A stretch of DNA of 64,000 nucleotides from Candidatus Kaiserbacteria bacterium RIFCSPHIGHO2_01_FULL_53_29 (GTDB lineage Bacteria; Patescibacteriota; Minisyncoccia; Phycocordibacterales; UBA2100), in NCBI GenBank assembly GCA_001781125.1, contig MFKT01000029.1:68040-132039 (forward strand), read 5' to 3'. The notes under the pieces are model-generated. The model saw nothing but the letters and a program-made list of their open reading frames with translations. It was not told where the DNA came from and ran no database searches. Below are positions 18,896 to 51,945 of the stretch, piece after piece; the stretch's first letter is position 1; each line of letters begins with the position of its first letter. A program made the position numbers and the translations under genes.

Positions 18896-18898
18896 AGG

Positions 18899-19408
18899 TT
18901 ACTGGCTGCGCGCGAGCGCTTGCTGCGCCGTGCGTATCGGTACGACGAGGTCTTGATCGGTGCGGATAATGTGGCGCTCCTCGTCGTTGGCGACCCCTCC
19001 CGCGATACGCTCCTTAATATCCAAACTCCACGAGAGTTCATGTAATCTGCTCTCGGAGAGCTTAGGCACGTAGATCTCGGCACTCCCCTGCGCCATCTTG
19101 CCCACCACCGGCATCGCAACACTTTTTTTGCGTGTGTTGTTCCAGAGATAGAGCTTGCTTCGCAGAAGGAAAAAGAACCCGTTCTCGAGGGCAAGAATAA
19201 ATGGCCGTCCATTGACCTGGAAAAAGGCAAGACCTGCGGCAAGGCCACCGGTGAGTACCACAAGAGGCGCCGCAAGATACATGGGCAATACGCGCCACAT
19301 GATGTAACAAGCGCCGAGGCCCCCGGCGACGTAGATGAATTGTTTAAAGGTCAAAGGGCCAAAAATCTTATCCTCGACCTCGATGAATTGTGGTACCTGG
19401 AATTGCAT
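18899..19408 (-). CDS. Small two-TM protein, VirB3/PrgI-like candidate
   Basis: 169 aa. Hydrophobic hairpin FIYVAGGLGACYIMWRVLPMYLAAPLVVLTGGLAAGLAFF, typical of VirB3-class subunits that precede VirB4. Confidence 0.5.
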   Translation of the reverse strand: MQFQVPQFIEVEDKIFGPLTFKQFIYVAGGLGACYIMWRVLPMYLAAPLVVLTGGLAAGLAFFQVNGRPFILALENGFFFLLRSKLYLWNNTRKKSVAMPVVGKMAQGSAEIYVPKLSESRLHELSWSLDIKERIAGGVANDEERHIIRTDQDLVVPIRTAQQALARSQ

Positions 19409-19414
19409 AGAGTT

Positions 19415-19445
19415 AGCTTGTAGCCGGTAGCTTGTAGCCGGTAGC
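19415..19445. repeat. Heptamer-array arm (AGCTTGT/AGCCGGT units), left arm flanking the IVS-protein gene
   Basis: agcttgtagccggtagcttgtagccggtagc. Reverse complement of the arm at 19818-19853. Confidence 0.8.
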
Positions 19446-19465
19446 TAAAAAAGCACCCGGCAAGC

Positions 19466-19816
19466 TTACCGAAGCGCTTTAATCATACCATGCAACATTT
19501 TACTCATTTCGGTTACTTGTGTACGCACGTTTTCGAACTCTTTTTCTGTGCAAAAGGCAAGCTCCTTGCTTATTAAGAGCTGCGTTTCAAGCTCAGCTAA
19601 GGAGCCGTGCGCCATTCGCAAGAAATGTCCAAAATCGGCATCGGTCCCACGCCGTCTCCCCTCTGCTATGTTTGATGGTACAGATACGGCTGCGCGACGG
19701 ATTTGTGATGTAAGGCCATACATCTCACGCGACGGGAACTTTTCGGTGAGCCGGTATATCAATGTACAAAGTGCAACCGCCTTTTTCCAGACCGCCAAAT
19801 CTTCGTGTGATTGCAT
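19466..19816 (-). CDS. Four-helix-bundle protein of the 23S rRNA intervening-sequence (IVS) family (PF05635-like)
   Basis: HEDLAVWKKAVALCTLIYRLTEKFPSREMYGLTSQIRRAAVSVPSNIAEGRRRGTDADFGHFLRMAHGSLAELETQL is the hallmark sequence of this family. ATG at 19816 preferred over the TTG at 19840, which lies inside the repeat arm. Confidence 0.8.
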   Translation of the reverse strand: MQSHEDLAVWKKAVALCTLIYRLTEKFPSREMYGLTSQIRRAAVSVPSNIAEGRRRGTDADFGHFLRMAHGSLAELETQLLISKELAFCTEKEFENVRTQVTEMSKMLHGMIKALR

Positions 19817-19817
19817 A

Positions 19818-19853
19818 GAGCTACGGGCTACTGGCTGCAAGCTACTGGCTTAC
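19818..19853. repeat. Heptamer-array arm, right arm flanking the IVS-protein gene
   Basis: gagctacgggctactggctgcaagctactggcttac. Inverted partner of 19415-19445. Confidence 0.8.
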
Positions 19854-20473
19854 TGCGGTGGCTCCCGGTAGGGATCGTCTTCAACGGACTTCCGAACTGT
19901 CGAGGCCTCGCCGGCTTTGTAGGCGGCTGATACGGGCGCGCGTTCTATTTTCCCCGTAGGTGAGGTCGAGGGCGGTGTAGCCGGTGCAACGAAGCTTGTA
20001 GCTTGTAGCTTGTAGCTTGTAGCAGATTCGGCATTCGTGCTGGCTTCAGGCTCCAAGCTACTGGCTACGGGCTGTTCTCCCAGCACTTGCGAGCGCACAT
20101 CTTCAACCCCGGTCGTATCTGCGGCCCTTGCATCCGGATGCTCGAGCTCACGCTCGAGCTGTTCGCGGACCGGTTGGAACACGATGCGGGAAACATTCGA
20201 AGCCAAGTCCTGTGCCATCTCCTGCGTAACATCAAGGTCTGCTTTGATGTTATCCGCAAGCTCCTCCGGTGGCTGGAACCCCATGAGCGTGAGCAGTACC
20301 TCGTTCTCCAGGAGTTGCCATTGGTCAAGATGCAATTTATTGGTATCCGCCAATTCCCGCAGCTGCTTCTGTATGTCGGTCGACGTAATAGCATCTTGCA
20401 ACACCTTCGGGAGCTCCTTAAACCGCTCCTTCAACTTCGCATTCAACTCATCTTGTGTCATTTTCATGTCCAT
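19850..20473 (-). CDS. Hypothetical acidic protein whose C-terminal region is encoded by a heptamer-repeat element
   Basis: N-terminal 120 aa look protein-like (MDMKMTQDELNAKLKERFKELPKVLQDAI...). C-terminal part translates the repeat (SYKLQATS). True 3' end uncertain. Confidence 0.4.
   Translation of the reverse strand: MDMKMTQDELNAKLKERFKELPKVLQDAITSTDIQKQLRELADTNKLHLDQWQLLENEVLLTLMGFQPPEELADNIKADLDVTQEMAQDLASNVSRIVFQPVREQLERELEHPDARAADTTGVEDVRSQVLGEQPVASSLEPEASTNAESATSYKLQATSFVAPATPPSTSPTGKIERAPVSAAYKAGEASTVRKSVEDDPYREPPQ
19993..20074. repeat. Heptamer-array inverted-repeat element (4 x AGCTTGT left arm, spacer, complementary right arm)
   Basis: agcttgtagcttgtagcttgtagcttgtagc, then a 19-nt spacer, then gcttcaggctccaagctactggctacgggctg. 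Confidence 0.8.
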
Positions 20474-20486
20474 ATATCAATGGGCA

Positions 20487-23363
20487 CTAGCTAGCTGGTG
20501 CGGCGGGGGCAGCGGGCGCGCCTCCTCCTGCGCCCGAACCAGTTTGTATATCTGCGAGCACGTCACGCAAGCCGGCAGTCTTCACCTTCTTTTTAAACAG
20601 GTCCGGAATTTCATCTTGTACGGCCTTATTTACAAGCGTTACTTTACCCAAAGTACGCGTGAGAATGTCCCCCTGTATTGCAGCGAACTCCTTGACAACT
20701 CCTTGAGCAGAAGTCGCCAGTCCTTTGGTCCCCTCTGTCGCCGCTTGATTCGCAAGTCTTTCCGTATCGGTCTGCCATTTTCTTTCCAGTGTCTCTCCGT
20801 ATTTTTTTTCAGCCGTAGCAAAATCATTCTGTACCCTCTTGAGATTGGGATCGTTTTCTATGTTGCCGATACGTGCTACCAATTGTTCTGCATTGCTGCG
20901 CGCATCGCGCGATCGACCAAACACCTCGTCATATTTTCTTGCTCTTTCTACGACTGCGGGATCTAGGGTAGGAATTTTACTTTGGACCTGAATGCGTGCT
21001 TGTTCGATACGATCTTCTTGGTGTCGCATGTCACTTCTGCGCTGCTCTTCAGAACTGGCGAGCTGGTCTTCAATTACTTTTCGCTGCTTCGAATCGGTAA
21101 TTGTTGAGAGCTGTGCCTTGAGACCTTGAATGACCGGATCATGTTTTGCGGCCGCCGTCGCTTTGCCCCCCGCGACTTCCGCTGCAGCGGCGTCAAGTTC
21201 GCGTTTCGCAGCATCCTTTGCTTCAGAATATTGATTCCGCTCGTCAGCGCTGAGATTGCTTGCTCGGGTCTCCGCTTGATCAATAATATCTTGTGCCGCT
21301 TTTTGTTGCGCAACAAATTTCGGATCATTGGCGAGAGCAGGATTTTCAGTTGCCATTTTCTTTAGGGAATCTCTAATGTCTTCCTGAACCGCAACGTTTT
21401 CCGGGCTGTAGAGGGTGCCATCGTTCGCCGCGGCCTTGAACGCGGTGCGGAACTCGTTGCCCACGGTTGTAAGTTGATCTTTCGTCGCTTTAGCAACCTT
21501 CTCTGCCGTTGTCAGCTGTTCTTTAAGCGGTCGTTCTCCTGCGGGATTCATTTTGCCGTCTGCTTCGTCCGCGGCGTCTTTCAGCGCAGCCTCAGCTATT
21601 TCTTTTGCGTTCTTCCGGTCCTCAACCTCCTTTCGTCGTTCGCGACGGATCCTTTCTTTCTCGATCTCCTTCACCTTTTCGTTGTCCTCTGCTGACGGTG
21701 CGATTTTTGCGGCTATTTTTTCTGCTTTTTCGGTTCGTCCTTTGACTTGGTCTGCATAACTCTTTTCGAGAGTAGTTCTCCCTGATTGTCCTGCTGCGAA
21801 ACCAGTAATGCCGACCGTTTTGGCAACGTTCTGAGCAGTTTTCGTATCCATTATATTGAAGCGACTATCCGCAAGTTTTCCTGCCTGTTCCATCGATTTC
21901 AATTTACTTGCAGCCAACCTCCTCTTTTCAGCGGCGGCTTTCCGCGTTTGCTCTGCAAGTGGAATGTTCCCCAGCGCTTCGTGTCTGTCCGCCGCCCGGT
22001 CCATAGCCGCCGCTTCATTATTTTCTCTCTTTGCGTCTTTGCCGAGTCTTTTAGCAGCAAAATATGCCGGCATGCCAATGCCCAAACGTCCTGCGCCGCC
22101 CACAAGGAAGCGGCTCCCTTGGATCAAGGGAGATAGAGCAAGAGCGCCGGCCAAATTGAATCCGGTGACAGTTCCTGCGATCTTGCTCGAGAGCTTGAAT
22201 GATATAAAGAGCATGCCGAGTACCATTACGAAGTTGAAGAGCGCGGCGATGTTGGCCCCGGGCGTCTGACTCGTCATGAGAGCGCCGAGGGTCCCACAAT
22301 TATGGCCCCCGCTACAGAGTGCTTTGCTCAAGGAGTTCGAGACATTCAACGTTATCCACAAAAAGAGCATCAATGCGGGTGCTAAGACAGCGCTCCCGAT
22401 AAGCGATTTCCACCATACATCCCATCCATAACTGCTCTTCTCCCACGCGGGAACAAGATAGCTCGCGAATGCGAGCGATGCGGTGACCATCAGGAAGATA
22501 AAAATGAGCGCCCGTGAAGCAAGGAGGTAGGTGCCGTATAAAAAGACGAGCGCGGTAGCGATGAGGAAGACGAAAGAGAGAATGCCGTAGACAAGGCCGA
22601 GAAGCGCGTTGTCGTTATTCTCCTGAATTCCGCGCAGCGCGTTGTATGAGTCGGCGATCCCGCCGACGCCGAGGAATCTCAAAAAACTTCCGGCGATGCC
22701 GTTGCCGGTAATGGTCGCAGCACCCGCCCCTGTGTTTGCGGTCGCGGACGGCGCCGCCGCCTCGTCCGCTTGTTTGAGAGCTCCATTGTAGAGCTGGAGT
22801 GCGGTGAAGTTCGACACGTCGATCATCATCTTGGTAAAAAGCAGGCTGAAGTTGATGAGAATGGCGATGATGAGTACCTTCGCGACCATTTTTTTCGCGT
22901 TGAACGTTTGCAATCCGAGAATGGTGCCGATCGCGATAAAAGTGAATATGCCGATGATAAGGATGTTGGCGATATCGCGAAATGCGCTCCACGCGGTATT
23001 GACCCCTTGCTCGATATTGTTGAATATCAGACCTCTGAAGTCGACTATGGTCGCCTTCAGCGCAAATTCGAAGAGCATACTCATCCAGGTGAGGACTGTT
23101 ATTCCGATGTACATAAAGAGCGATCCGAGACCCGCGAATATGCCCCGCATCCAACATATCGGATTTAAGTTGCTCAAATTCCATCCGCTCGAGCATGAAG
23201 TGCTCCCCGCATCATTCGCGACGCCGGAAGCCCCCACGACAGCGTTGAGACCTTGCGCATGGGTAACGGTGGGAATAGCTGTTACCCCTGCGCTGAAGCA
23301 GACCAAGAGCGCAATAAAGACGATTGCGGATCTTTGCCAACGAGTTTGTTTGAAGGTCATCAT
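20487..23363 (-). CDS. VirB6/TrbL-like polytopic membrane protein with a long C-terminal K/E/A-rich coiled-coil extension
   Basis: Signal/TM N-terminus, then about 8 TM helices over the first roughly 480 aa (TrbL/VirB6 architecture). Then about 470 aa of low-complexity charged coiled coil ending in GSGAGGGAPAAPAAPAS. Confidence 0.65.
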   Translation of the reverse strand: MMTFKQTRWQRSAIVFIALLVCFSAGVTAIPTVTHAQGLNAVVGASGVANDAGSTSCSSGWNLSNLNPICWMRGIFAGLGSLFMYIGITVLTWMSMLFEFALKATIVDFRGLIFNNIEQGVNTAWSAFRDIANILIIGIFTFIAIGTILGLQTFNAKKMVAKVLIIAILINFSLLFTKMMIDVSNFTALQLYNGALKQADEAAAPSATANTGAGAATITGNGIAGSFLRFLGVGGIADSYNALRGIQENNDNALLGLVYGILSFVFLIATALVFLYGTYLLASRALIFIFLMVTASLAFASYLVPAWEKSSYGWDVWWKSLIGSAVLAPALMLFLWITLNVSNSLSKALCSGGHNCGTLGALMTSQTPGANIAALFNFVMVLGMLFISFKLSSKIAGTVTGFNLAGALALSPLIQGSRFLVGGAGRLGIGMPAYFAAKRLGKDAKRENNEAAAMDRAADRHEALGNIPLAEQTRKAAAEKRRLAASKLKSMEQAGKLADSRFNIMDTKTAQNVAKTVGITGFAAGQSGRTTLEKSYADQVKGRTEKAEKIAAKIAPSAEDNEKVKEIEKERIRRERRKEVEDRKNAKEIAEAALKDAADEADGKMNPAGERPLKEQLTTAEKVAKATKDQLTTVGNEFRTAFKAAANDGTLYSPENVAVQEDIRDSLKKMATENPALANDPKFVAQQKAAQDIIDQAETRASNLSADERNQYSEAKDAAKRELDAAAAEVAGGKATAAAKHDPVIQGLKAQLSTITDSKQRKVIEDQLASSEEQRRSDMRHQEDRIEQARIQVQSKIPTLDPAVVERARKYDEVFGRSRDARSNAEQLVARIGNIENDPNLKRVQNDFATAEKKYGETLERKWQTDTERLANQAATEGTKGLATSAQGVVKEFAAIQGDILTRTLGKVTLVNKAVQDEIPDLFKKKVKTAGLRDVLADIQTGSGAGGGAPAAPAAPAS

Positions 23364-23505
23364 ACCCGGCTAGTACAATTTCGAATAATTCCTGCCGCAG
23401 GTCACACTGCGGAAAGGTTGCATAACGGCTGAGTCATTTTTTCTTGTCATACGTTGGTGAATATTCATACAAGGCGATTCGAAATTGTCCTGCCGGGCAT
23501 ACTCA

Positions 23506-25209
23506 TTACTTCCACTTTGTGACCCACGCCGCTCTCGTCGCATCGTTCGTGGCGTTGCACCAGCCGACCCCGGGATTTGTCGTGCCGTCCCATGAGAGAT
23601 TTGCGGGAGTGCTCCCATCAGAGCCGACTCCTGTCCATGTATCTCTCGTCGTTTGCAGCAAATTCGTCAATGAGCTCAGGGTGCTTTGCTGTTGCTGTGT
23701 GATCGCTGCCACATCCGGCGGCGTATGGAGAACAGGAGGACGCGCACTGACGAGCTGATCGAGCTCCTGGAGTGCCTGGGATTGTGTGGCGGGATTCGAG
23801 AGACGTGCAGCGATACTCGTGAGTTTTGCAAGCGTTTCATCGGATTTCTGGATGGCGGGTAGTATTTGAGCCGCCAAAGTTCCGATCTGGGAATCGATGA
23901 CCGCTTGCGCGAATTGATAGGTCGAAGTCGCAACGGTGAGACTGCCGCTTGCAGGCGGTTTGGCGGTACATTTTCTATCAGCGTCTGGTGGTGCGGTGCA
24001 CACGTTCGAAATGACGAGAGCCCAGCACTGATTCTCGAGGCCCCGCAGCTGCAATGTCGCTTGCGTGAGCAGACTCCCGATCGATTTCACGACCTGATTG
24101 TACTGCTGCTCTGTTCGCAGAGCGCCGGCGAGATTGTTGTTCGCGACATTGACGGCGGCATCCCGCAGGCCCTGCCCCGATTGCGAGGAGACCTGATCGA
24201 GATATGATGGCTGGCCGCCGATGCTTTGAGACAGGCCCGCGAGTCCCTGAGAATCAGCCACGATCTGTGTTGCCACGCCGGCATAGAGAGCTCCTATCAT
24301 CTGGCCGATGTCGTTGGCGCTTTCCAGTTGGCGCACAGAACTATCGATGACGTTCTGGAACGTGCTGTTCACGTTGGAGGCTGGCGTGAGCACCCTTTGG
24401 TTCAGGGGATCTTGCGCCCCATCGGTTAGGGCATAATAGCCGCGACCCCAATTCCATTGATCAAGCTGGTACTGTTTCGCCGCTGCGATCCTGCTGTTTA
24501 CGAGATCCTGAGCTTCAAATTTTGCATATAGAGGGACACAATCCGGATCGGCCCCGGCAAGAAAAGCATCGAAACTGAAATTCTGTGTCGGGTTGGTCTG
24601 GAACGGGGTCAGATCCCCCTCATAGGGACACGTGAGCTCGGTCTGCGGCGCCCTAGTACTTGTGTCGTAATTGACGAGTACGGCACGACTCACCGCCGCC
24701 TTGAAAGCCGGATTGAGCGAATCGAGCGCACCGCTCTGGAACCACGAAACGAATACTTGATCGCCTACGGTCAAGAGTTCCTGCCCTTCATTCACCGCGT
24801 ACTGTGGATTGCCGTTGCGACCCTCTTGGATCCCCTTGTAAGACCTTTTTAAATATGCTGCGCTGGCGGCTTCCCGCTGGCGGACTATCACTTCGCGCAG
24901 CACGCATTCTTTGTACACCAGGATCCCTGTATTGAGCTCGACGGTCGCATCGGCAACGGGCACGTATATCCCGTTTGCCGTGAGCGACCCCACATTCATC
25001 GCGAACGCGCCGTTCTGGTTGCAGTCGAAGATCCCCTGTCGCTGGTATTGATACGCCTGCGCGTTCGCAAAAAGAGGCAGAAAGCATCCCGAGACAACGA
25101 GCGCAGACAAAAGGGTCTTCTTCACCCCGTTAGAGACCGCAGGCAACGAATTTTCTTTCATCATCATTTGGTCAGTTGTTGGACGACCGGAGTCTCTAAT
25201 GGGGCTCAT
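23506..25209 (-). CDS. Large secreted protein of unknown function (T4SS-locus associated)
   Basis: 567 aa. Hydrophobic leader KKTLLSALVVSGCFLPLFANAQA. ATGA start/stop overlap with the upstream gene. Q/N/S-rich. Confidence 0.55.
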   Translation of the reverse strand: MSPIRDSGRPTTDQMMMKENSLPAVSNGVKKTLLSALVVSGCFLPLFANAQAYQYQRQGIFDCNQNGAFAMNVGSLTANGIYVPVADATVELNTGILVYKECVLREVIVRQREAASAAYLKRSYKGIQEGRNGNPQYAVNEGQELLTVGDQVFVSWFQSGALDSLNPAFKAAVSRAVLVNYDTSTRAPQTELTCPYEGDLTPFQTNPTQNFSFDAFLAGADPDCVPLYAKFEAQDLVNSRIAAAKQYQLDQWNWGRGYYALTDGAQDPLNQRVLTPASNVNSTFQNVIDSSVRQLESANDIGQMIGALYAGVATQIVADSQGLAGLSQSIGGQPSYLDQVSSQSGQGLRDAAVNVANNNLAGALRTEQQYNQVVKSIGSLLTQATLQLRGLENQCWALVISNVCTAPPDADRKCTAKPPASGSLTVATSTYQFAQAVIDSQIGTLAAQILPAIQKSDETLAKLTSIAARLSNPATQSQALQELDQLVSARPPVLHTPPDVAAITQQQQSTLSSLTNLLQTTRDTWTGVGSDGSTPANLSWDGTTNPGVGWCNATNDATRAAWVTKWK

Positions 25210-26053
25210 AGCTGTTTTTTCGCGTTGTACGAGTAGAGCCCACTGAACGATGTGAACATGTTCCGTTCGGCCTGATCATAGCTGCGCAAGAGTGCCACTG
25301 AGGCAAACGGGTCCTCCGCGTGTGCCACCAGCTGCTCAAGTGTCGCCGCGAATTCCTGCATTGCATTAAGAATAGCGAGGTGCTGCACGACAGCGTCTGC
25401 CGGAGCCGCGACATTCGCAGTGGAGGCAGCCGCATCTTTGTAATTCTTTGCCACTTCGGTGAGTTCTTTGAGGTAGGACGCATCTTTCGTTTGCACGTAG
25501 TTCCCAAAGATCTCGTATTCAGGGGTCGTGTTCTTGAAAAGCGGCTTCAGTGTGCTCTGGAGAGCAAGGCGATACGCGAGCATTGCCGCATAAGACGTGT
25601 CGGAGCTTGTCTTGACGTCTGCCTTTGTGAAGCGGCGATATGAGACCTCTGCGCGCATCAGCGGAGCGAGATCCTGTGCGATTTGCGCGCCCGCCTCCTC
25701 CGTATACGTACCCGCTTGCTGCATCTGCGCGTATTGACCGGCAAGCCGGTCCATCACCACTGCGCCAATGGAGGAGATCGCGTCGGTCGAAGACGTCGCG
25801 GATGAAAAAGATGCACTGCCGAATATCGACATCCCCGCCACGTTTTCTTTTGACGAAGAAATGTCTGTACCCGCATCCGCAGAGGCGACATAGGTCGTTG
25901 CACTTTTCTTCTCCTGCACCGATCTCTCCACGCTCCATCCAAGAACCACCATGAGCGCCAAGACAGAAGCTGCGGCGGTTATCCCAATAGCCGTGAACCC
26001 ACGACTGTTGTTGCAATAGGACAAAAAGCCCACGCATCTGTTCGCGCGTTTCG
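25206..26053 (-). CDS. Membrane-anchored protein of unknown function (start uncertain; ORF-track N-terminus runs into the repeat element)
   Basis: TM segment ITAAASVLALMVVLGW followed by an S/A/T-rich soluble domain. Upstream ORF extension translates heptamer repeats (MLQATSYWLQ), so the start is placed at the GTG/Met near 26053. Confidence 0.45.
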
Positions 26054-26075
26054 TTCTCACACAGGAAGTATAACA

Positions 26076-26171
26076 AGCTTGTAGCCAGTAGCTTGTAGCT
26101 TGTAGCAAAAAAGAGGAAAAATACGAAACACTCTCTGGCTTCAGGCTACGAGCTGCTGGCTACAGGCTCCC
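26076..26171. repeat. Heptamer-array inverted-repeat element
   Basis: agcttgtagccagtagcttgtagcttgtagc, then a 31-nt A-rich spacer, then ggcttcaggctacgagctgctggctacaggctcc. Confidence 0.8.
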
Positions 26172-26210
26172 GATTTGTCCGCGCGTAGCGCGGTCACAAA
26201 TCGCAGTCCT

Positions 26211-27104
26211 TTATGGGCTCATGGGCGTGAACGTGAAGACGCTTCCCGCATCACTTTGTGCAAAGACGACGCCATAGGCGCCGAAAAGTTCTGCCACCGC
26301 GACATAGTTTCTTGTGAACGTATCAGCCGAAGCGTTGTACGTCTGTATTGCCGCAATAAAATCACTATCGCGCTCTGCATAAGGCACCAGTGCGAGGTTG
26401 GTTCCTATCGCGATGTAGCTCTTTGCCAATTTCTGGTGCGCCGAAGCCATTGCGCTTGGCACGACGTCCATACCTTGGAGATTTTGGCCCACTTCTTTGA
26501 GAGCCCGCGCGAGCTCGCCCACGGCGGCTGCCTTATTGCTGTCACTGCGGTCCTCGACCTGATCTTTAAGCGTCTGCGCTTTCCCTTGGTTCTGTTCTTC
26601 AAAAGATCGAATGTATGAACCAATATCGTTGCCGTAATCGTAGAGTTTTTGCTGTGTCGCGCTGCGACTCTGTTGGACCGACGTGGTGCTCATAAGTCCG
26701 CTTGGTATGAATGCGTATGCATCTGTCACCTGGTTGTCAGTGCCTCGCGCCCCGCCCGAGGCGGGTCGGCCTTGGGCCGAGAGCAGTGCGATGAACGCGT
26801 TGAAATCGAATGGAGCACTCTGCTCCGTATCAGGATCTTTTACCACAGGCGGGGTATATGCGGAGGGCACGGTCAGAACATTTGGGAACACGGAGTATTG
26901 ATTTTGGGATGGCTGGGTCGACGCGGGGGCAGGAGGCGTATGCGATGATGGATTGAAGAGTGAGATCTCTGTGCCTGCCCACGTCCGTGTGCTTGCGGCG
27001 GGGGATGCCGCGGAGCGGCTGTTCACAATGAGCGCGCCCACGAGGAGAAGTGCCAGCGTTGCGGCCAATGCATCTACGTACGGGTGTGCGCGTAACCAAT
27101 TCAT
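26211..27104 (-). CDS. Membrane-anchored protein of unknown function; carries an in-frame palindromic insertion (QGRPASGGARG)
   Basis: 297 aa. N-terminal TM ALAATLALLLVGALIV. First gene of the minus-strand operon. Contains the element cccgaggcgggtcggccttggg at 26755-26776. Confidence 0.5.
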   Translation of the reverse strand: MNWLRAHPYVDALAATLALLLVGALIVNSRSAASPAASTRTWAGTEISLFNPSSHTPPAPASTQPSQNQYSVFPNVLTVPSAYTPPVVKDPDTEQSAPFDFNAFIALLSAQGRPASGGARGTDNQVTDAYAFIPSGLMSTTSVQQSRSATQQKLYDYGNDIGSYIRSFEEQNQGKAQTLKDQVEDRSDSNKAAAVGELARALKEVGQNLQGMDVVPSAMASAHQKLAKSYIAIGTNLALVPYAERDSDFIAAIQTYNASADTFTRNYVAVAELFGAYGVVFAQSDAGSVFTFTPMSP

Positions 27105-27537: not shown

Positions 27538-28350
27538 CTAGGGTTTAGCCACTAGAAAAGACACGAGTTGTTTCCACGCATCCAGCGGGACGTCTTCTGC
27601 GCGAACCGCAGGTAAAATCCCAATAGCATTGAATACCGCAGCGACACGGTCTTTCTCAAACCGCACACCCAGATTGTTTGCCAGGAATTTTCGCTTTGAT
27701 GTAAAACCAGCATGTATAACCTCAAAAAACCTCTCCTCGCTTATAGTGTCGAAGAATTTTTTTGATACATTGTCTATCAGGAGAATCGCGGAGTCGACCG
27801 ACGGCGGCGGGGAGAAATTCCCGCGTGATACTTTTGCAATAATTTTTGGTATTCCGTACGCTTTGACCGAAAGTGAGAGAATGGATTCTTTTCCATTCCG
27901 AGCGACGATACGATCTGCAACCTCTTTCTGCACGAGAAGTGCGAGCGCGCGCGGTTGTGAAGATGTTTCCAAAAACTGTCGGATAATTTCTCCGGTAATG
28001 TAGTATGGAATGTTGGCAGCCAGCACATAGCTTCCCGCGATCAGGTTATATCGTTGTGGGTCGAAGTTGCGAATATCATCCGAAACGAGAATTAATTTTC
28101 CGAACTCGATCTTGCTGCGGAATGTTTCTTCGAGATGCGTAACGAGCGCCTCATCTTTTTCGATCGCGATTACGGTCGCGCCCGTTGCGAGAAGTTCTTT
28201 GGTGAGCGCGCCTTTGCCCGGCCCTATCTCGAGAATTGTTTCGTTCGGTTTGACGTCTACCGCTCTGGCGAGCACCTCGGCGGCCCACGTCCCCGTGAGG
28301 AAGTGTTGCCCCAACCTCGCCCCTTTCCTAGCGGATCGTTTCTTCTTCAT
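27538..28350 (-). CDS. rsmA: 16S rRNA (adenine1518/1519-N6)-dimethyltransferase RsmA/KsgA
   Basis: SAM-binding motif ILEIGPGKGALT. Start placed at MKKKRSARKGARLGQHFL; the ORF-track extension would overlap pcrA. Confidence 0.85.
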   Translation of the reverse strand: MKKKRSARKGARLGQHFLTGTWAAEVLARAVDVKPNETILEIGPGKGALTKELLATGATVIAIEKDEALVTHLEETFRSKIEFGKLILVSDDIRNFDPQRYNLIAGSYVLAANIPYYITGEIIRQFLETSSQPRALALLVQKEVADRIVARNGKESILSLSVKAYGIPKIIAKVSRGNFSPPPSVDSAILLIDNVSKKFFDTISEERFFEVIHAGFTSKRKFLANNLGVRFEKDRVAAVFNAIGILPAVRAEDVPLDAWKQLVSFLVAKP

Positions 28351-30268
28351 ATTCTTTTTTCTCCGGTTGCGCATACTCCATAAGCCGCTGGTCGATGTCG
28401 TCCAAAAATTCCGACGGGAGTGTGTGTTCACGCGAACCGTATTTCATGCGCTCGCTCGCATACGAGAGAAAAAGTCGTTTGCGTGCGCGGGTGAGTGCGA
28501 CGTAGAAAAGTCGTCGCTCTTCCTCCGGGTCGCGCATCTCGTCGCTCTCATGCATTGAGGGGAAAAGTCCCTGCTCAAGACCGGTGATAAAGACGGCATC
28601 GAATTCCAAGCCTTTAGAGGCATGGACCGTCATGAGCGATATGGCTTCCATTTCCTCTCTTAATTCGTCTTGGTCGCTTTGTAGGGCTGCTTCTTCCAGC
28701 AGTTGTTCAATTCCCTCTGGTGGAGCGGCATAATCGAAACGAGTCGCGAAGTTTACGAGCTCGCGAATGTTTTCCAGCCGCTCATGCCCTTCCTCTTTAT
28801 CATTCTTGTACATTTTTTCCATCCCACTCGCCTCGAGTGCGTATCGCACCGCGTCGGAGGCGGGGAGTGTCTCGAGCGCCTTCCGGATATGGGTGAGAGT
28901 ATCCCGAAATCCCTGCACTTTTGCGCGCGCCGCGCGCGCAAGCACATGATCGGCATTCATCAACATTTTCTCGAGCGTCACTTTCCCTATCCCCCGGGAT
29001 GGCGTGCTCGCGGCCCGCGCAAGATCAATTCTACTTTTCGGATTCCACGCCGCGCGCAGATAGCTCAGGAGATCTTTGACCTCCTTGCGCTCGAAGAATC
29101 GTGTACCGATGACGCGATATGGCAGATTGAAATGCAGAAACGCTTCTTCAAGAGCGCGCGACTGGAAATTCTCTCGATACAACACTGCGACCTCGCTCGC
29201 CTTTCCGCCGGAGGCGGATCCGCCTCCGGCGGACATTCCTTTCTCTATAAGTTCTTGGCATTTTGTCGCAACAAACCACGCCTCGTCGATCTCATTTTGC
29301 GCTCCATAGAGTGAGAGCGGCTCACCAGTCGGGTTCTCGGTGAACAATACTTTTGGTTTGCGTCGCAGATTCTTTTCAATGATCGAATTTGCGGCTGCGA
29401 GAATGGTGCGCGTCGAGCGGTAGTTTTGCTCGAGCGTTACAACTTTTGTATTCGGAAACACCTCCTCGAACTCAAGTAAATTTTCAAGACGCGCCTGTCT
29501 CCATGTGTAGATCGCTTGGTCCAAGTCGCCAACGACGCACAAGTTGTTCTCCGGTGCGGCAAGCAGTCGCGCGATCTCGTACTGTGCCGCGTTGGTGTCC
29601 TGGTATTCATCAATAGTGATGTGGGTCCAGCGATTTTGCAAAAGATCGCGCACACCGGCATGCGCGCGCAAAAGTGTGAGCGTGCGCAAAAGAAGGTCGT
29701 CAAAATCCAGCGCTCCCTCGTCGTGCAGGGCTTTCTCGTAGTTTCTCCAGGCCTTTGCAATAATTCGCTCCCGAAAATTCCGTGCCCCGACTTCGAATTC
29801 CCCGGCGGAAAGGCCTTTGCCTTTCTCCCGCGAGATCACTGCAAGTGCCGCGCGTGGCGGAATCGATTCGACTTTGTCTGCCTCGAGCGAACGCCTGAGG
29901 GTCCGCATGCTGTCATCGCGATCCCAGATCGAGAAGCCCCGGGGAATTCCCGCTTCCAGGTGGAATTCGCGCAAGATCCTCACTCCGAGCGAGTGGAAGG
30001 TCGTAAGAAGAGGGATGTTTTTGCCTGCGGGGATAAGGGCTCGCACCCGCTCCCGCATCTCTCCGGCAGCTTTGTTGGTAAAGGTGACGGCAAGTATCCG
30101 GTGCGCGGGTACCCCGCTTTCTATAAGGTGGATGATACGGTGAGTGATGGTCTTGGTCTTCCCCGCTCCTGCGCCGGCGACGATGAGTAGGGGCCCATCA
30201 GTGTGCAACGCAGCCTCCCTCTGTCGTTCGTTGAGATCATCGAGGGATGACACCCCGTTAGAAGCCAT
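28328..30268 (-). CDS. pcrA: ATP-dependent DNA helicase PcrA/UvrD family
   Basis: Helicase motif I AGAGAGKTKTITHR, II VDEYQDTN, and later SF1A motifs. Contains an in-frame 30-bp palindrome encoding GGGSASGGK. Confidence 0.9.
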   Translation of the reverse strand: MASNGVSSLDDLNERQREAALHTDGPLLIVAGAGAGKTKTITHRIIHLIESGVPAHRILAVTFTNKAAGEMRERVRALIPAGKNIPLLTTFHSLGVRILREFHLEAGIPRGFSIWDRDDSMRTLRRSLEADKVESIPPRAALAVISREKGKGLSAGEFEVGARNFRERIIAKAWRNYEKALHDEGALDFDDLLLRTLTLLRAHAGVRDLLQNRWTHITIDEYQDTNAAQYEIARLLAAPENNLCVVGDLDQAIYTWRQARLENLLEFEEVFPNTKVVTLEQNYRSTRTILAAANSIIEKNLRRKPKVLFTENPTGEPLSLYGAQNEIDEAWFVATKCQELIEKGMSAGGGSASGGKASEVAVLYRENFQSRALEEAFLHFNLPYRVIGTRFFERKEVKDLLSYLRAAWNPKSRIDLARAASTPSRGIGKVTLEKMLMNADHVLARAARAKVQGFRDTLTHIRKALETLPASDAVRYALEASGMEKMYKNDKEEGHERLENIRELVNFATRFDYAAPPEGIEQLLEEAALQSDQDELREEMEAISLMTVHASKGLEFDAVFITGLEQGLFPSMHESDEMRDPEEERRLFYVALTRARKRLFLSYASERMKYGSREHTLPSEFLDDIDQRLMEYAQPEKKEYEEETIR

Positions 30269-32473: not shown

Positions 32474-33508
32474 GTGTTGAACTTGGATGTCATAGTCGAT
32501 CTCCAGTATGGAGATTGTGGAAAGGGCAAAGTTGCCCACTATTTAAGCCATAAAAACTCCTACACCCACGTGCTCCGCTACAACGGCGGCTGCAACGCCG
32601 GCCACACGATTTTTCATAAAGGGAAAAAATTTGTTACACACTCCGTGCCCGCCGGTGTGTTTTTTGGTGTGAAGTCTATCATCGGCTCCGGCTGTGTTGT
32701 GGACCCCGATCAATTTTTCCGCGAGATTGCAATGCTCGAAAAAGGCGGGGTCGCTACCCGCGGAAAGATCTTCATTGCGAATAACGCGCACATCGTTACC
32801 GATGCGCACAAAAATGAGGACAAACAAAAAGGCGGCAAGATAGGCACCACCGGCCGCGGCAACGGCCCCGCGTATCGCGATAAGTACGGCCGCACCGGCG
32901 TGCGCGCAGAGCAGGTAAGGAAGCTCAAACCGTACCTTATTGATCTCTACGATGAGTGGTATGGGAAATCCGCCCAAGGCGGATCGGCCTCGGGCCGAAA
33001 GAATATAAATATTCTTGCTGAAGGTGCGCAGGGCTTCGGGCTCGATATTGATTGGGGCGATTATCCGTTCGTCACATCGAGCCATTGCACTACAGCCGGC
33101 GCGCTCTTGAACGGACTTCCTGCAAGCGCCATTCGGAGTGTGTGGGGAGTCGCGAAGATCTACGAGACGTACGTGGGCAGCAAGAAATTCCAGCCGAAAG
33201 GCAAAGTATTCAACAAAATCGGAGATATCGGAGAGGAATTCGGCTCGACAACCGGCCGACGTCGCCAGACAAATTGGATGAATATGGCTTCGCTCGAGCG
33301 CGCTATCCGCATGAACGGTGTCACGCACATCGTTTTCAGCAAGACCGACGTCTTGCGCGACGTCGGCGCGTGGGCGGTTATAGATAAAAACAAAGTGGTT
33401 GCGTTTAAAAGTGAAAAAGCAATGCAAGATTTCGTACTCAAACGTCTCAAATCATTCGGCATTCCGAAAACAAAAGTGTATTTCTCCGACAGCAAAGAGA
33501 CGATCTAG
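32474..33508 (+). CDS. purA: Adenylosuccinate synthetase, compact form (344 aa) with an in-frame palindromic insertion
   Basis: P-loop QYGDCGKGK, GHTIFH, the TTGRGNGPAY IMP-binding motif, and TKTDVL. Contains the element cccaaggcggatcggcctcggg encoding QGGSASG. Confidence 0.85.
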   Translation: MLNLDVIVDLQYGDCGKGKVAHYLSHKNSYTHVLRYNGGCNAGHTIFHKGKKFVTHSVPAGVFFGVKSIIGSGCVVDPDQFFREIAMLEKGGVATRGKIFIANNAHIVTDAHKNEDKQKGGKIGTTGRGNGPAYRDKYGRTGVRAEQVRKLKPYLIDLYDEWYGKSAQGGSASGRKNINILAEGAQGFGLDIDWGDYPFVTSSHCTTAGALLNGLPASAIRSVWGVAKIYETYVGSKKFQPKGKVFNKIGDIGEEFGSTTGRRRQTNWMNMASLERAIRMNGVTHIVFSKTDVLRDVGAWAVIDKNKVVAFKSEKAMQDFVLKRLKSFGIPKTKVYFSDSKETI

Positions 33509-36494: not shown

Positions 36495-36700
36495 CATTGT
36501 ACCGTGTTTACAGACGGGTATTCAAAATGAATACCCAGGAGGAAGTTCCTGGGCGGAGGGGAGAAAATATTTAGAAAATATTTTCAATAAATTATTTGAG
36601 CAATGCGGATCGGGATCCGCGACGTGACAACATCAGTTGTCATGTTTGTTTTGGATCACTTCCGATCCAAATCTAAAGCCAGTGTGCAATAGTTTATTGA
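36495..36700. promoter_or_regulatory. Array of five perfect hairpin/palindrome sites in the comM-trmB divergent intergenic region
   Basis: gggtattcaaaatgaataccc; gaaaatatttagaaaatattttc; gcggatcgggatccgc; gacaacatcagttgtc; ttggatcacttccgatccaa. Confidence 0.6.
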
Positions 36701-41574: not shown

Positions 41575-41863
41575 TATCTCTTTGGGTGATGTTGGGACCT
41601 GCCCCGTAGTGAGTCCAGCTTCCTCTCGCAGACAGCTCAATTCCTGATTGTGGTGCCCGACCTCTCGGACAACGTAATCAAAAATTGAGGACTCTACTGC
41701 GGGGTTTCAGCGAAAACACTCGCCTATCCAAACACCACGACTATTTATTAATGTAGCCAGTATACCCAAATCCCGCGTTTTTACAATACTTATCTATCGA
41801 TTTGATGACGCGGGGCGTGTAGCGGAGTAACGTGCTGCTTCTTTTGTGTTTTGTGCGGATCCC

Positions 41864-41892
41864 CACCAACAATTCCATGGAATTGTTGGTGA
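41864..41892. promoter_or_regulatory. Perfect palindrome CACCAACAATTCCATGGAATTGTTGGTG downstream of arsR and upstream of pnp
   Basis: 28-bp perfect inverted repeat, a second copy of the operator-like site at 42197-42222. Confidence 0.6.
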
Positions 41893-41902
41893 GACACATT
41901 TG

Positions 41903-42175: not shown

Positions 42176-42196
42176 ATCAAAAGTATAGCACACAAC

Positions 42197-44966: not shown

Positions 44967-46247
44967 ATGGAACACCCCAAGGGTAGTGCCGTCGACAGGT
45001 GCACATCTCCAAACGATGTGCCGATTTCCTATCACTCGAATACTCGCGATGGAAATCGGGAGCCCCTCGCGTCGCAGATCAGACCGAAGAGTTTGGATGA
45101 GTTTGTTGGGCAATCTCATTTGACCGGTGTGGGGAAGCCTTTGCGAGTTGCGATCGAGAAGGAAGAATTGTTCTCTTTCGTCCTGTGGGGCCCGCCCGGC
45201 TCGGGCAAGACGACGCTTGCGCGGATCTATGCCAATGCGGTCGGCGCGGATTTTTATGAACTCTCGGCGGTAGACGCGGGCAAAGAAGATATCAAGAAAG
45301 TCATCCGCCTTCGCCAAGGCTTCGGCGGACAAGTCGGCTCCCTTCTCATCGAAAAGCCACGGGTACTGTTCATCGACGAGATACATCGGTTCAACAAGGC
45401 GCAACAAGATTTTCTCCTTCCCTTCGTCGAGCGTGGCGACATCACGCTTATCGGTGCCACGACCGAGAATCCGAGTTTTGAGATTATTTCTCCGCTCCTT
45501 TCTCGCACGCGCGTCTTTGTTCTGAATGAACATACCGAAAGCGAGATGGAGAAAATTATCAAACGCACAAAATTAAAAATCCCGAAAGACGCAAGAGATT
45601 GGCTGATCCAAATGGCCGGTGGCGATGCGCGGCAAGCCATCACGACACTGGAGACCGCAAATGCTTTATACGGCAAAATCACACTGGATACTTTGAAAGA
45701 AGCAATACAGTCCAAGCACCTGCGCTATGACAAAAAAGGCGAGGAGCACTACAACACCATCTCCGCATTCATTAAAAGTATGCGCGCCTCGCAGCCTGAC
45801 GCCGCGCTCTACTACCTCGCGCGCATGGTGGACGCTGGCGAGGATCCCAAATTCATCGCACGGCGGATGGTTATTTTTGCAAGTGAAGATATCGGGCTTG
45901 CCCAGCCGACCGCGCTCGTCGTTGCGAATGCTGTATTCGAAGCGGTCAACAAGATCGGCTACCCAGAGGCGACGATCAATCTCGCGCACGGCGTTGCCTA
46001 CCTCGCACAGTGCAAAAAAGATAGGCGCGCGTACGATGCCATCTTTGAAGCGCTCGACGACGTGAAAAAGCATGGCAATCTCCCTATTCCGATGAAGGTC
46101 CGCAATGCGCCGACGAAATTGATGAAAGGTTTGAAGTACGGGAAAGGTTACGAAATGTACCCTGAAAAGTCGCGAGGCGACCACGGGGCAGGCGACAAAG
46201 AATCCTACCTGCCCGACAAGCTTAAAAAGAAAAAGTACTTGAAGTAA
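44967..46247 (+). CDS. rarA: Replication-associated recombination protein A (MgsA/RarA, WRNIP1-like AAA+ ATPase)
   Basis: RPKSLDEFVGQ, Walker A LWGPPGSGKTTLA, Walker B VLFIDEIHRFNKAQQD, and the MgsA C-terminal domain. Confidence 0.85.
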   Translation: MEHPKGSAVDRCTSPNDVPISYHSNTRDGNREPLASQIRPKSLDEFVGQSHLTGVGKPLRVAIEKEELFSFVLWGPPGSGKTTLARIYANAVGADFYELSAVDAGKEDIKKVIRLRQGFGGQVGSLLIEKPRVLFIDEIHRFNKAQQDFLLPFVERGDITLIGATTENPSFEIISPLLSRTRVFVLNEHTESEMEKIIKRTKLKIPKDARDWLIQMAGGDARQAITTLETANALYGKITLDTLKEAIQSKHLRYDKKGEEHYNTISAFIKSMRASQPDAALYYLARMVDAGEDPKFIARRMVIFASEDIGLAQPTALVVANAVFEAVNKIGYPEATINLAHGVAYLAQCKKDRRAYDAIFEALDDVKKHGNLPIPMKVRNAPTKLMKGLKYGKGYEMYPEKSRGDHGAGDKESYLPDKLKKKKYLK

Positions 46248-50952: not shown

Positions 50953-51945
50953 GTGATGGCGGGCGATCTCAAATCCCTCAAAACGCAATTCCTCGAATAC
51001 ATCGAGATAGAAAAAGGGCGCAGTGTAAAGACGGTCGAGAATTACGACCGGTATCTGCGGCGATTCTTGGATTATGCGTCCGCCAAAGGCGGATCCGCCT
51101 CCGGCGGAAAAGTTTTAATGCCGAGCCAGATAACCGAGCAAATGGTGCGTGAATTTCGCATCACTTTGAATCGTTCAAGCGGGGTATCCGGCACGATGAA
51201 GAAGAATACGCAGAATTATCACCTCATCGCGCTGCGCGCTTTTCTCAAATTCCTCCGTAAGCGTGATATTGAGTCTCTGAATCCGGAGCGAATCGAGCTT
51301 GCAAAAACGAGTGGGCGCGATCTGGATTTGATTACCAGTGCAGAACTTGATCGTTTGATGGCGGCCCCCTCCTCCGCTAAAGCTTCGGAGGGCAAGGATG
51401 AGCTCGCGGCGTTGCGCGACCGCGCGATATTAGAGTTATTATTCTCAACCGGCTTACGCGTCTCAGAATTGTGCGGGCTGAATCAGGATATCGATCTCTC
51501 GCGCGATGAATTTTCCGTGCGCGGCAAGGGGGAGAAAGTGCGGGTCGTATTTCTCTCCCCTTCCGCCAAAAAAGCGGTTGCGGAGTATATCAAAAGACGC
51601 GGGGACATGTCGGAAGCCTTGTTCGTCAGCTATGGTCGAGTTGGAATAAAGAAATCGGCCCAAGGCCGATCCGCCTCGGGCGGAGATCTTCCACGCATCA
51701 CTGCCCGCTCGATCGAGCGATTGGTAAAACAGTACGCGATCAATGCCGGCATCACACGAAAGGTCACCCCGCACGTGATCAGGCATAGTTTTGCGACCGA
51801 CTTACTCGAGAATGGAGCCGACCTGCGCTCGGTGCAAGCGCTTCTAGGGCATGCAAATATCGCAACGACACAGGTCTATACACACGTCACCGACAAACAC
51901 CTAAAAGAAATACACAAAGCTTTCCACGGAAAGAGAAGGGCATAG
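50953..51945 (+). CDS. xerC: Tyrosine recombinase XerC/XerD family, with two in-frame palindromic insertions
   Basis: N-terminal core-binding domain. Catalytic residues in RDRAILELLFSTGLRVSE ... HVIRHSFATDLLENGADLRSVQALLGHANIATTQVYTHV. Insertions encode SAKGGSASGGK and AQGRSASGGD. Confidence 0.8.
   Translation: MMAGDLKSLKTQFLEYIEIEKGRSVKTVENYDRYLRRFLDYASAKGGSASGGKVLMPSQITEQMVREFRITLNRSSGVSGTMKKNTQNYHLIALRAFLKFLRKRDIESLNPERIELAKTSGRDLDLITSAELDRLMAAPSSAKASEGKDELAALRDRAILELLFSTGLRVSELCGLNQDIDLSRDEFSVRGKGEKVRVVFLSPSAKKAVAEYIKRRGDMSEALFVSYGRVGIKKSAQGRSASGGDLPRITARSIERLVKQYAINAGITRKVTPHVIRHSFATDLLENGADLRSVQALLGHANIATTQVYTHVTDKHLKEIHKAFHGKRRA

Follow-up and report, generated by a model that had tools for sequence, protein, structure and literature searches.

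Palindromic repeats that lie within genes are a known kind of sequence. The Rickettsia palindromic elements (RPEs) were reportedly described by Ogata et al. in 2000 as in-frame inserts that are tolerated on the surface of conserved proteins, and RPE-1, which is roughly 100–150 bp long and encodes 30–50 amino acids, is confined to Rickettsia. Intragenic repetitive extragenic palindromes (REPs) are known from Opitutus, Thauera and Rickettsia (RPE-4 and RPE-6), where replication and repair genes are frequent hosts, those of UvrD/Rep helicases among them (PMC3733652, Di Nocera et al. 2013). Here, we describe a 30-bp palindromic element that is present five times in a 64-kb stretch of the genome of Candidatus Kaiserbacteria bacterium RIFCSPHIGHO2_01_FULL_53_29 (contig MFKT01000029.1; this whole stretch is called the window hereafter), once each in pcrA, purA and a hypothetical gene, and twice in xerC. 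We consider it probable that the five sites hold a non-autonomous insertion element of the REP or RPE kind, which is placed precisely and without target duplication, and whose linker-encoding frame is tolerated at protein loops. A 30-bp family that spans phyla and has a symmetric target appears not to have been described: within the searchable literature, queries by core DNA, by peptides and by topics combining candidate phyla radiation (CPR) bacteria with palindromic repeats led to cloning primers, synthetic linkers and papers on REPs in general, and to nothing else, in agreement with the preliminary description of this DNA, which knew of no account of the family.

All five sites contain one and the same 30-nt unit, which can be aligned without gaps and is read in a single shared frame, S-A-x-G-(G/R)-(S/P)-A-x-G-(G/R). 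The unit is made of two tandem 15-nt inverted repeats of the form TCCGCC-N3-GGCGGA, with 6-bp arms and a 3-nt spacer in each. Spacer 1 is purine-rich (AAA, AGA, GAA, GGA, CAA) and spacer 2 is rich in T and C (TCC, TTC, TCG, TCT, TTG), so that the element amounts to a unit followed by its approximate reverse complement. The copy in pcrA (29204..29233, minus strand) has canonical arms and complementary loops (TCCGCC-GGA-GGCGGA joined to TCCGCC-TCC-GGCGGA) and encodes SAGGGSASGG between a host Met and a host Lys; it is the perfect 30-bp palindrome, TCCGCCGGAGGCGGATCCGCCTCCGGCGGA, that had been reported at this place within the 646-residue pcrA open reading frame (ORF) as encoding ...MSAGGGSASGGKAS..., and that report is borne out. 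The four further copies listed in the preliminary description are correctly placed, but the spans of 22–28 bp assigned to them are only the inner parts of one 30-nt unit. In xerC, copy 1 (51079..51108, plus strand) joins TCCGCC-AAA-GGCGGA to TCCGCC-TCC-GGCGGA and encodes SAKGGSASGG between a host Ala and a host Lys, and copy 2 (51655..51684, plus strand) joins TCGGCC-CAA-GGCCGA, a compensated G3–C13 variant of unit 1, to TCCGCC-TCG-GGCGGA, encoding SAQGRSASGG. The purA copy (32969..32998, plus strand) consists of TCCGCC-CAA-GGCGGA and TCGGCC-TCG-GGCCGA, its unit 2 being a compensated G18–C28 variant, and encodes SAQGGSASGR between two host Lys residues. Finally, the copy in the hypothetical gene (26751..26780, minus strand) reads, in coding orientation, TCGGCC-CAA-GGCCGA followed by CCCGCC-TCG-GGCGGG, with both units compensated, and encodes SAQGRPASGG. 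The change from GATC to GACC in this copy, which had been regarded as a mutated core, is not decay, as T16>C is offset by A30>G to give CCCGCC/GGCGGG; the three imperfect copies in the window are all compensated variants (TCGGCC/GGCCGA and CCCGCC/GGCGGG). By contrast with these sites, the non-coding palindrome at 36605–36620 (GCGGATCGGGATCCGC), once thought to be a relative, is without the TCCGCC-N3-GGCGGA architecture, was left unmatched by scans allowing up to 6 mismatches and does not belong to the family.

The window was scanned both with the element sequence, at up to 6 mismatches, and with a sequence-blind structural search for pairs of adjoining 15-nt units in which a perfect 6-bp stem encloses a 3-nt loop. 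The structural search recovered precisely the five sites, a density of about one per 13 kb (5 per 64 kb), and found none in 10 shuffles. Frequency by chance, a check proposed earlier, thus depends on what is counted: the 12-mer core, when at most 2 mismatches are allowed, occurs at the expected level in the window (6 observed versus 5.4 expected), and the full 30-nt double-hairpin unit is found five times against zero in the shuffles. The unenriched core, together with the labelling of the carriers as metagenome-assembled genomes (MAGs), could be cited in favour of chance, of base composition or of an artefact of sequencing or assembly, for example a palindrome from a linker or an adaptor. This explanation is refuted by the evidence, which comprises the shuffles, the descent with modification seen among orthologous copies, a frame filter that operates inside genes only and the origin of the assemblies in many unrelated studies. 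An identical PcrA protein is also present on 12 contigs from ENA and JGI assemblies (of 5 places examined, 5 translate to it), and since these are separate assemblies, an assembly artefact is excluded.

Beyond the window, one genome per GTDB species was scanned with the pattern CCNRAGGCSGATCSGCCTYSGG, and metagenomes were scanned with a pattern in which the loops are free, TCCGCCNNNGGCGGATCCGCCNNNGGCGGA; at least 120 loci matched in each scan. The copy counts given for frames, flanks, covariation and host genes rest on the matches listed, which come from 240 element-bearing loci in all. In 276 copies with up to 5 arm mismatches, 27 compensatory double changes fit the two-hairpin model, versus 4 that fit a single long hairpin. 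Folding as single-stranded DNA likewise converts four of the five window copies, and the commonest variant elsewhere, into two tandem triloop hairpins of about −12.5 kcal/mol, with the pcrA copy alone folding as one 13-bp hairpin (−18.7 kcal/mol). One long hairpin was rejected as the general structure on the basis of these compensations, as only perfect copies fold in that manner; the earlier description as a palindrome therefore holds for the pcrA copy and fails as the anatomy of the family, which is a tandem pair of 15-nt hairpins. Across 117 aligned copies, the eight arm positions outside the search pattern (1–4 and 27–30) are kept at 89–97%, and conservation drops abruptly at −2 and +33, with the consensus tTt-TCCGCC...GGCGGA-aAa, indicating that no larger element surrounds the 30-mer.

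Comparison with orthologues, 120 each for XerC (76–100% identity), PurA and PcrA, revealed a clean presence or absence of 10 residues in all three proteins, which upholds the proposal that these are lineage-specific, in-frame palindromic inserts at loop positions of conserved enzymes. Of the 120 XerC orthologues, 4 carry the site-1 insert and all others lack it, filled and empty forms differing by exactly 10 residues; the PurA insert is found in 5 of 120; and the PcrA insert is found in 2 of 120, namely the window protein and one relative of 87% identity, the remaining 118 being without exactly these 10 residues. Orthologues thus do not carry the segments as ancestral sequence, the outcome that the preliminary description had set against its own proposal. 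At the DNA level, empty alleles of XerC site 1 (loci L248 and L249) read TAT GCC|AAG GTG and the window reads TAT GCG|30 nt|AAA GTT, a gain of 30 nt with no duplicated flank. XerC site 2 is filled in about a dozen orthologues, and six orthologues have the same insertion there, with the same unit-1 variant. One PurA orthologue (P0130) has an independent copy at a second position, between a host Phe and a host Lys. The inserts were placed on known structures (PcrA 1pjr, XerA 4a8e and XerD 1a0p), which locate them in loops: PcrA 1pjr has a gap of 9–10 residues at the insert, between ...VERGER and RYRDFAVLYR, and XerA 4a8e lacks 9 residues at the position of XerC site 2. In other host genes, about 20 of 40 gapped alignments provide unambiguous 10-residue pairs of filled and empty sites, and the rest have 7–9 gap columns.

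The sequences into which the element has inserted are strongly biased. A TT|AA junction is observed at 27% of copies versus 0.6% in the background, and T two bases upstream together with A two bases downstream occurs in 148 of 214 copies. This co-occurrence, combined with the exact 30-nt difference between alleles, shows that the target is symmetric and is not duplicated upon insertion. The residues beside the inserts (F, I, L or M before; K, E or N after) are already present in empty homologues, which means that the flanks are a property of the target rather than of the element. The junctions in the window are GCG|AAA, AAA|GAT, AAA|AAG, ATG|AAG and CTC|GCG.

About two thirds of the copies (145 of 215) lie within ORFs of at least 450 nt, where their reading frame is far from random. 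In the free-loop metagenome set, ORFs of 900 nt or longer contain 45 copies in the S-A-x-G-G frame and 0 and 8 in the others, versus 11:12:7 for the three frames in contexts below 450 nt; the alternative frames would give PPxADPPxA and RRRRIRLRR. All 94 in-frame copies encode SA[KQEGR]GGSA[SFLY]GG, with K...S loops favoured in genes and an R...F variant (AGA/TTC) common outside them. Palindromy, which had been invoked to explain the uniform peptide, does not do so by itself, because intergenic copies occur in all three frames while intragenic copies are held to Ser-Ala-x-Gly-Gly; a restriction that exists inside genes only points to a selective filter. A mini-intron (bulge-helix-bulge) and translational bypass were considered and rejected, since the two 3-nt loops are opposed rather than staggered and an untranslated insert would show no frame restriction. 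In a Pfam scan of 20 element-carrying host proteins, 17 were matched and 3 were without a match. The hosts are housekeeping enzymes with no relation to one another, and include DnaG, the DNA polymerase III alpha subunit DnaE, UvrB, HsdR, two class-II aminoacyl-tRNA synthetases, PheT, CysS, HemB, an [FeFe]-hydrogenase, ArsA, a CtpA-type protease, an E2 acyltransferase, a GH57 protein and a Mur ligase.

Orthologous copies reveal how loops and stems have evolved after insertion. At XerC site 2, the loops of the six orthologues form a mutational series (CGA/TTG, CGA/CTG, CAA/TTG, CAA/TCG, CAT/TCG). Four-fold degenerate sites in the arms of these copies are identical in 6 of 7 columns, with a pairwise identity of 0.95, versus 10 of 100 columns and 0.43 elsewhere in xerC (Fisher p = 3e-5), and the sole arm change, GGA>GGG in L256, is matched by TCC>CCC, restoring the 16–30 pair. 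Coordinated changes were also found among orthologous copies at XerC site 1, involving all four arms in L250 and the 5–26 pair in L251, the latter giving a perfect palindrome. In purA, the copy in an orthologue with 76% amino acid identity (L259) is identical at 30 of 30 nt, and four-fold sites agree at 9 of 9 positions within it versus 60 of 118 outside (p = 0.004). The codons directly flanking the inserts differ, and the identity is therefore not a product of recent allele transfer. The loops thus evolve under peptide selection, whereas whatever preserves the arms operates on nucleotides and their pairing.

These observations bear on an explanation in which the peptide itself is selected, as a Gly/Ser/Ala linker or as a modification site, and the palindromy of the DNA is incidental. 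The conservation of SAxGGSAxGG in orthologues and the evolution of loop codons toward K, Q or E and S would be expected under such selection, but the frozen synonymous sites are beyond its reach, one third of the copies lie outside ORFs and in all three frames, and the hosts and insertion positions are unrelated to one another. We strongly disfavour this explanation.

Stems that are conserved in situ, with compensatory changes that preserve pairing, would also be consistent with a function at the RNA level, where two small hairpins in messenger RNA or untranslated regions would be selected for an effect on stability, on processing or on ribosome pausing; many REPs are considered to function as RNA (PMC3733652). 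Sense-strand G·U pairs in coding copies (8), however, do not exceed A·C mismatches (13), which led us to reject selection on sense-strand RNA, and the composition of the sense-strand loops follows the amino acids encoded (K...S), not base pairing. Intergenic copies are situated between tandem (33), divergent (5) or convergent (3) genes, with no bias to gene 3' ends and no enrichment at convergent ones, and the flanks, T-rich upstream and A-rich downstream, are the reverse of those of a terminator. An Rfam scan of the window at the gathering threshold reported four tRNAs only and no family over the elements. On this balance, an RNA-level origin of the pattern seems improbable to us. An intrinsic terminator was rejected outright, as the T-rich upstream and A-rich downstream flanks apply on either strand and two thirds of the copies lie inside ORFs.

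A third possibility is that the element is a DNA signal, such as an uptake sequence or a structure used in replication or segregation, which benefits the host or is maintained by drive, whose integrity would be preserved through selection or through preferential uptake with recombination, and which is tolerated in coding DNA. The DNA uptake sequences (DUS) of Neisseria and the uptake signal sequences (USS) of Haemophilus display the same kind of bias, and CPR bacteria are believed to rely on taking up DNA. Further support comes from the stems being kept at synonymous sites in orthologous copies, from the presence of the same sequence in lineages from similar habitats, and from the frame bias in genes, whose hosts include the DNA-maintenance genes pcrA, xerC (twice), dnaG, dnaE, uvrB and hsdR. 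Against such a signal, the copies are clean 30-bp blocks and not the product of accretion by point mutation, their density of about one per 13 kb is far under that of uptake sequences, and the compensatory changes in the arms fit base pairing better than they fit recognition of a duplex word. Moreover, the strong TT|AA site bias is unexpected for a signal, and uptake specificity across phyla would be unprecedented. We therefore view a DNA signal as unlikely, albeit as the foremost of the explanations that dispense with an insertion element.

Variants of the element recur in ways that inform on its origin. The 30-mer of the hypothetical gene, with its four substitutions, is identical to the XerC site-2 copy of a relative (L256), and accordingly represents a subfamily that has been propagated, not a copy in decay. 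The purA 30-mer recurs unchanged in a hydrogenase gene of Falkowbacteria (L040), and its reverse complement is identical to the XerC site-2 copy of L257. Recurrence of rare variants at unrelated loci favours the copying of pre-existing elements, and it thereby counts against local, de novo origin, in which elements would arise repeatedly by template switching or fold-back synthesis at TT|AA sites without copying of existing ones. Such an origin would suit the architecture, a unit joined to its reverse complement, as well as the coordinated arm changes, in which arms behave as if they template each other (four arms in L250; pairs in L251 and L256), and no transposase was found. It does not explain why the same 24 arm nucleotides are present at unrelated sites in genomes of 30–70% GC, or why multi-substitution variants recur, and we deem it very unlikely. 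On the L250 contig, from a Kaiserbacteria relative, both copies (706–735 and 864–893) have TCCTCC/GGAGGA arms, a shared variant that hints at genome-specific concerted evolution of the family.

The family is distributed widely. In the genome scan, among the matches listed, 64 loci belong to CPR classes by record title (among them Kaiser-, Sacchari-, Lipton-, Doudna-, Moranii-, Falkow-, Buchanan-, Uhr- and Nomurabacteria), and the other labels include Omnitrophota, Verrucomicrobiota/Kiritimatiellae/Lentisphaerae/Planctomycetota, Elusimicrobia, Auribacterota, Chloroflexota, 'Gammaproteobacteria' and more. All listed carriers are labelled as MAGs except L110, which is untagged, and the assemblies originate from many unrelated studies. 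The local GC content of the host loci ranges from 30% to 70%, and two or three high-GC loci in which the outer arms are not conserved (L062, L072 and L105) are probable chance matches. Lineage specificity therefore applies to the individual insertions, as previously claimed, and does not extend to the family itself, which spans many CPR classes and other phyla.

Anatomy, insertion polymorphism, frame filter, target bias, spread across phyla and in-situ stem conservation are all directly visible in the data, and the insertion element that we favour would account for them as follows. A 30-bp element would be copied precisely into new sites, adding 30 bp, with a preference for T-rich|A-rich junctions (TT|AA). 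Its length, a multiple of 3, means that insertion causes no frame shift. One of the three frames would supply Ser-Ala-x-Gly-Gly twice, as a flexible linker, and the other two would be Pro-rich or Arg-rich, such that survival within genes would be limited to the linker frame and to surface loops. The loop triplets of inserted copies would then drift toward K, Q, E or G and S by peptide selection, with the stems remaining intact or undergoing changes that preserve pairing. Spread may have occurred by transposition through a trans-acting enzyme that recognises hairpins (HUH/Y1-like or other), and the conservation of stems may reflect correction templated from arm to arm, a requirement for hairpin formation, or both. 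The earlier view of these inserts as tolerated selfish elements agrees with this account as far as insertion is concerned, and is incomplete in treating them as merely tolerated, as stems are kept at synonymous sites in orthologous copies.

Several findings weigh against a non-autonomous insertion element. A selfish element should decay, yet stems are frozen in orthologous copies while the flanking codons diverge. The symmetric, duplication-free TT|AA target is a mismatch to the asymmetric 5'-tetranucleotide of IS200/IS605 or REP systems, and near-invariance of a 30-mer between phyla is out of character for REP-type repeats, each normally restricted to one species. No mobilising enzyme came to light: all-against-all clustering of 4669 ORFs from 240 loci yielded no linked gene, with no family present in more than 7 loci. 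When 7077 ORFs from about 2.1 Mb were searched by phmmer with Escherichia coli RayT, one match was obtained, L232:4776-5297 (Pfam Y1_Tnp, E = 3e-5), a single and non-adjacent Y1 transposase gene that lies ~4.5 kb from the element, with ~300 bp free of copies downstream and a contig end on its other side. The element is nearly absent from the collections of possible vectors that were searched, with only 2 matches in the IMG/VR viral collection, zero among PLSDB plasmids and one, at chance level, among GenBank phages (Pyrobaculum spherical virus), and a viral or plasmid vector was rejected on these grounds. Furthermore, the taxonomy of the carriers is that of MAG record labels, which are not verifiable from this data.

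During the search for an associated gene, small stand-alone GIY-YIG nuclease genes (PF01541) were noted in 7 of 240 loci (L008:4690-5124, L027:3418-3900, L047, L157, L223:616-987, L232 and L244), bordered by other hairpin-repeat families, for example GTCATTCTGAGCGAGCC... and GATCCTTCGACTCGG...CTCAGGATGAC. They were rejected as the linked gene, since none adjoins the 30-mer, apart from a loose association in L008.

A more far-reaching version of the insertion-element account is possible, though we lean against it: a pan-phylum element with insertion machinery of its own and a symmetric TT|AA cut without duplication, whose stems are actively maintained within essential genes, either by a hairpin function at the level of the host or by self-correction among the four arms. 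Signals in single-stranded DNA during uptake, replication or repair in ultra-small groundwater bacteria would be candidates for such a host-level function. Were active maintenance to be true, the family would constitute a new class of coding-compatible mobile DNA in CPR, Omnitrophota, Planctomycetota–Verrucomicrobiota–Chlamydiota (PVC) and other uncultured lineages.

If a mobile 30-bp element is indeed responsible, then one sequence has colonised much of the uncultured bacterial world, including the interiors of essential genes, from those for primase and the replicative polymerase to those for UvrB, UvrD/PcrA, Xer recombinases, tRNA synthetases and PurA, and offers a testable case of mobile DNA shaping proteins, in which flexible loops are gained in one step and a single frame is allowed. 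It would account for the recurrent GGSASGG segments and for length variation in CPR proteins, both of which confuse annotation, alignment and structure prediction. Duplication-free insertion at TT|AA, together with constancy across phyla, would imply a dedicated trans-acting enzyme and possibly a new DNA-insertion activity, and frozen stems in coding DNA would suggest a function or a self-repairing palindrome, with a bearing on genome stability.

The proteins encoded in the window are identical to those of Candidatus Kaiserbacteria bacterium RIFCSP MAGs, members of the CPR/Patescibacteria. The host genes in the window are readily recognised, with one exception. The pcrA/uvrD gene (28328..30268, minus strand, 646 residues) encodes the Pfam domains UvrD-helicase and UvrD_C and matches PDB 1pjr with E = 2e-140. 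The purA gene (32474..33508, plus strand) encodes a short, 344-residue form with the Pfam domain Adenylsucc_synt; over residues 6–310 of 344, this protein, of the short form of about 335–345 residues, aligns with 2d7u and 5k7x, which are of the Pyrococcus type and 339–340 residues long, unlike the 430-residue bacterial form. Its gene has HicA/UPF0150 and YafQ-like toxin–antitoxin genes as neighbours. The xerC gene (50953..51945, plus strand), which encodes a tyrosine recombinase of the XerC/XerD type with the Pfam domains Phage_integrase and SAM-like, is translated into 330 residues from a GTG start (329 in the database entry P0001).

The hypothetical host gene (26211..27104, minus strand, 297 residues) is without a Pfam match and lies upstream of a cluster resembling a type IV secretion system (T4SS). 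It sits at the edge of this cluster (window ~17500–27100, a mirror of L001:13165-21941), which includes genes for large unannotated proteins of 275, 551, 958 and 207 residues, a four-helix protein resembling 23S_rRNA_IVP/bAvd (about 19466–19840) and PrgI-like and TraC-like genes. The cluster is consistent with a Patescibacteria type IV secretion locus, and the PrgI-like and TraC-like neighbours support the label of T4SS locus that had been given to the hypothetical gene.

The loops of XerC and PurA are hot spots for several unrelated hairpin elements. A third insert in the window xerC gene (51367..51392, plus strand; CCCTCCTCCGCTAAAGCTTCGGAGGG) belongs to a different family, centred on AAGCTT, and encodes PSSAKASEG; it is absent from most XerC orthologues, coincides with a 7-residue gap relative to XerD 1a0p, and its family (PSFAKASEGKK) fills XerC site 2 in other orthologues. 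Three separate hairpin inserts thus explain why the window protein has ~330 residues versus about 303 in undecorated orthologues. In other Kaiserbacteria, the two loops are filled by PSFAKASEGKKG, by (G/P)STSL(G/R)VNK at XerC site 2, and by PFDKAQGK, its reverse-orientation form PSxVEG or PRAKSRG in PurA. Orthologues with such alternative fillers include P0014, P0021, P0045 and P0046, and the Kaiserbacteria loci L254:2312-3247 and L255:10001-10936. Additionally, a related 26-nt insert is present in a rarA/mgsA-like gene (44967–46247) at 45304..45329 (plus strand; TCCGCCTTCGCCAAGGCTTCGGCGGA; peptide (I)RLRQGFGGQ), which has the outer arms TCCGCC/GGCGGA in common with the 30-mer and is an indel relative to the L251 orthologue. 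The occurrence of further hairpin-insert families in the same loops (FAKASEGK, FDKAQGK/PSxVEG, STSLRVNK and LRQGFGGQ) makes the phenomenon broader than the 30-bp family.

Other repeats were noted in the window. An intergenic cluster at 62040–62280 contains the cross-genome repeat words CTTCGCTAAAGCTACGAAG, CCTCCTTCGCTAAAGCTTCGGACGG and CTTCGACAAGCTCAG, followed by a perfect, terminator-like 36-nt palindrome at 62239–62274, and CTTCGACTTCGCTCAG, at 3860–3875, is common to 6 other loci. Two copies of the AT-rich perfect palindrome ACAACAATTCCATGGAATTGTTGT (41862–41893 and 42192–42215) are found about 330 bp apart around the start of the gene 42276–43259, and look like paired operator sites of a dimeric regulator. 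The word TCTAACGGGGTGAA or its complement occurs at 25121–25134, 52367–52380, 57346–57359 and 57414–57427, as well as in at least 3 unrelated loci of other genomes; the copy at 52367 is directly ahead of a GTG start at 52376, and the word may be a leader or a motif of the ribosome-binding type.

Compared with described systems, the 30-mer combines features that are otherwise encountered separately. Like yeast mitochondrial GC clusters and the coding palindromes of Nematomorpha, it is a hairpin-forming palindrome that is embedded in genes and translated; those sequences are organellar, are much longer, reaching 284 bp in Nematomorpha (PMC6649704), belong to other sequence families and include no cross-phylum unit. 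Miniature inverted-repeat transposable elements differ from it by their target-site duplication, as filled and empty alleles of the 30-mer differ by exactly 30 nt. With DUS, the USS of Pasteurellaceae and the cyanobacterial highly iterated palindrome HIP1 (GCGATCGC), it shares over-representation as a short word, intragenic frame bias, conservation in orthologues and a frequent arrangement in inverted pairs, and with HIP1 also a GATC-centred palindromic flavour. Motifs of this type are words of 8–12 bp that occur about once per kb and have accumulated by point mutation, in contrast to the insertion of a 30-bp block, about one per 13 kb, with hairpin covariation.

The miniature elements of the IS200/IS605 group, or palindrome-associated transposable elements (PATEs), which HUH Y1 transposases mobilise by way of single-stranded hairpins, resemble the 30-mer in having hairpins at both ends, in inserting precisely and without target duplication, and in conserving structure above sequence. 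IS200/IS605 elements target the 3' side of an asymmetric tetra- or pentanucleotide, and their cleavage sites lie some distance from the foot of the hairpin. In the 30-mer, by contrast, the hairpins abut both ends, the target is symmetric and no transposase was found nearby.

REPs, and the REPINs formed by their inverted pairs, are closer still, being GC-rich imperfect palindromes of 20–40 bp that exist in many copies, are organised as paired inverted units and undergo stem changes that preserve pairing, with some REPs lying in frame within genes, above all those of replication and repair, UvrD/Rep helicase genes included (PMC3733652). RAYTs, the Y1 transposases that mobilise REPs, are REP-associated tyrosine transposases. 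The 30-mer departs from them in having no GTAG or CGTC tag at either end (117 copies) and no association with RAYTs detected in about 2.1 Mb of loci. It is about two thirds intragenic and has no bias to gene 3' ends, whereas REPs are mostly extragenic, and it is found across many phyla at a symmetric TT|AA site, whereas REPs are found in one species or genus.

The analogy with RPEs drawn in the preliminary description is apt, as in both cases palindromic repeats have inserted in frame into functional ORFs of conserved proteins, are tolerated on the protein surface and are present in some orthologues and absent from others (PMC3733652). The 30-mer differs in that it encodes 10 residues, forms a double hairpin, and is carried by CPR bacteria together with other phyla.

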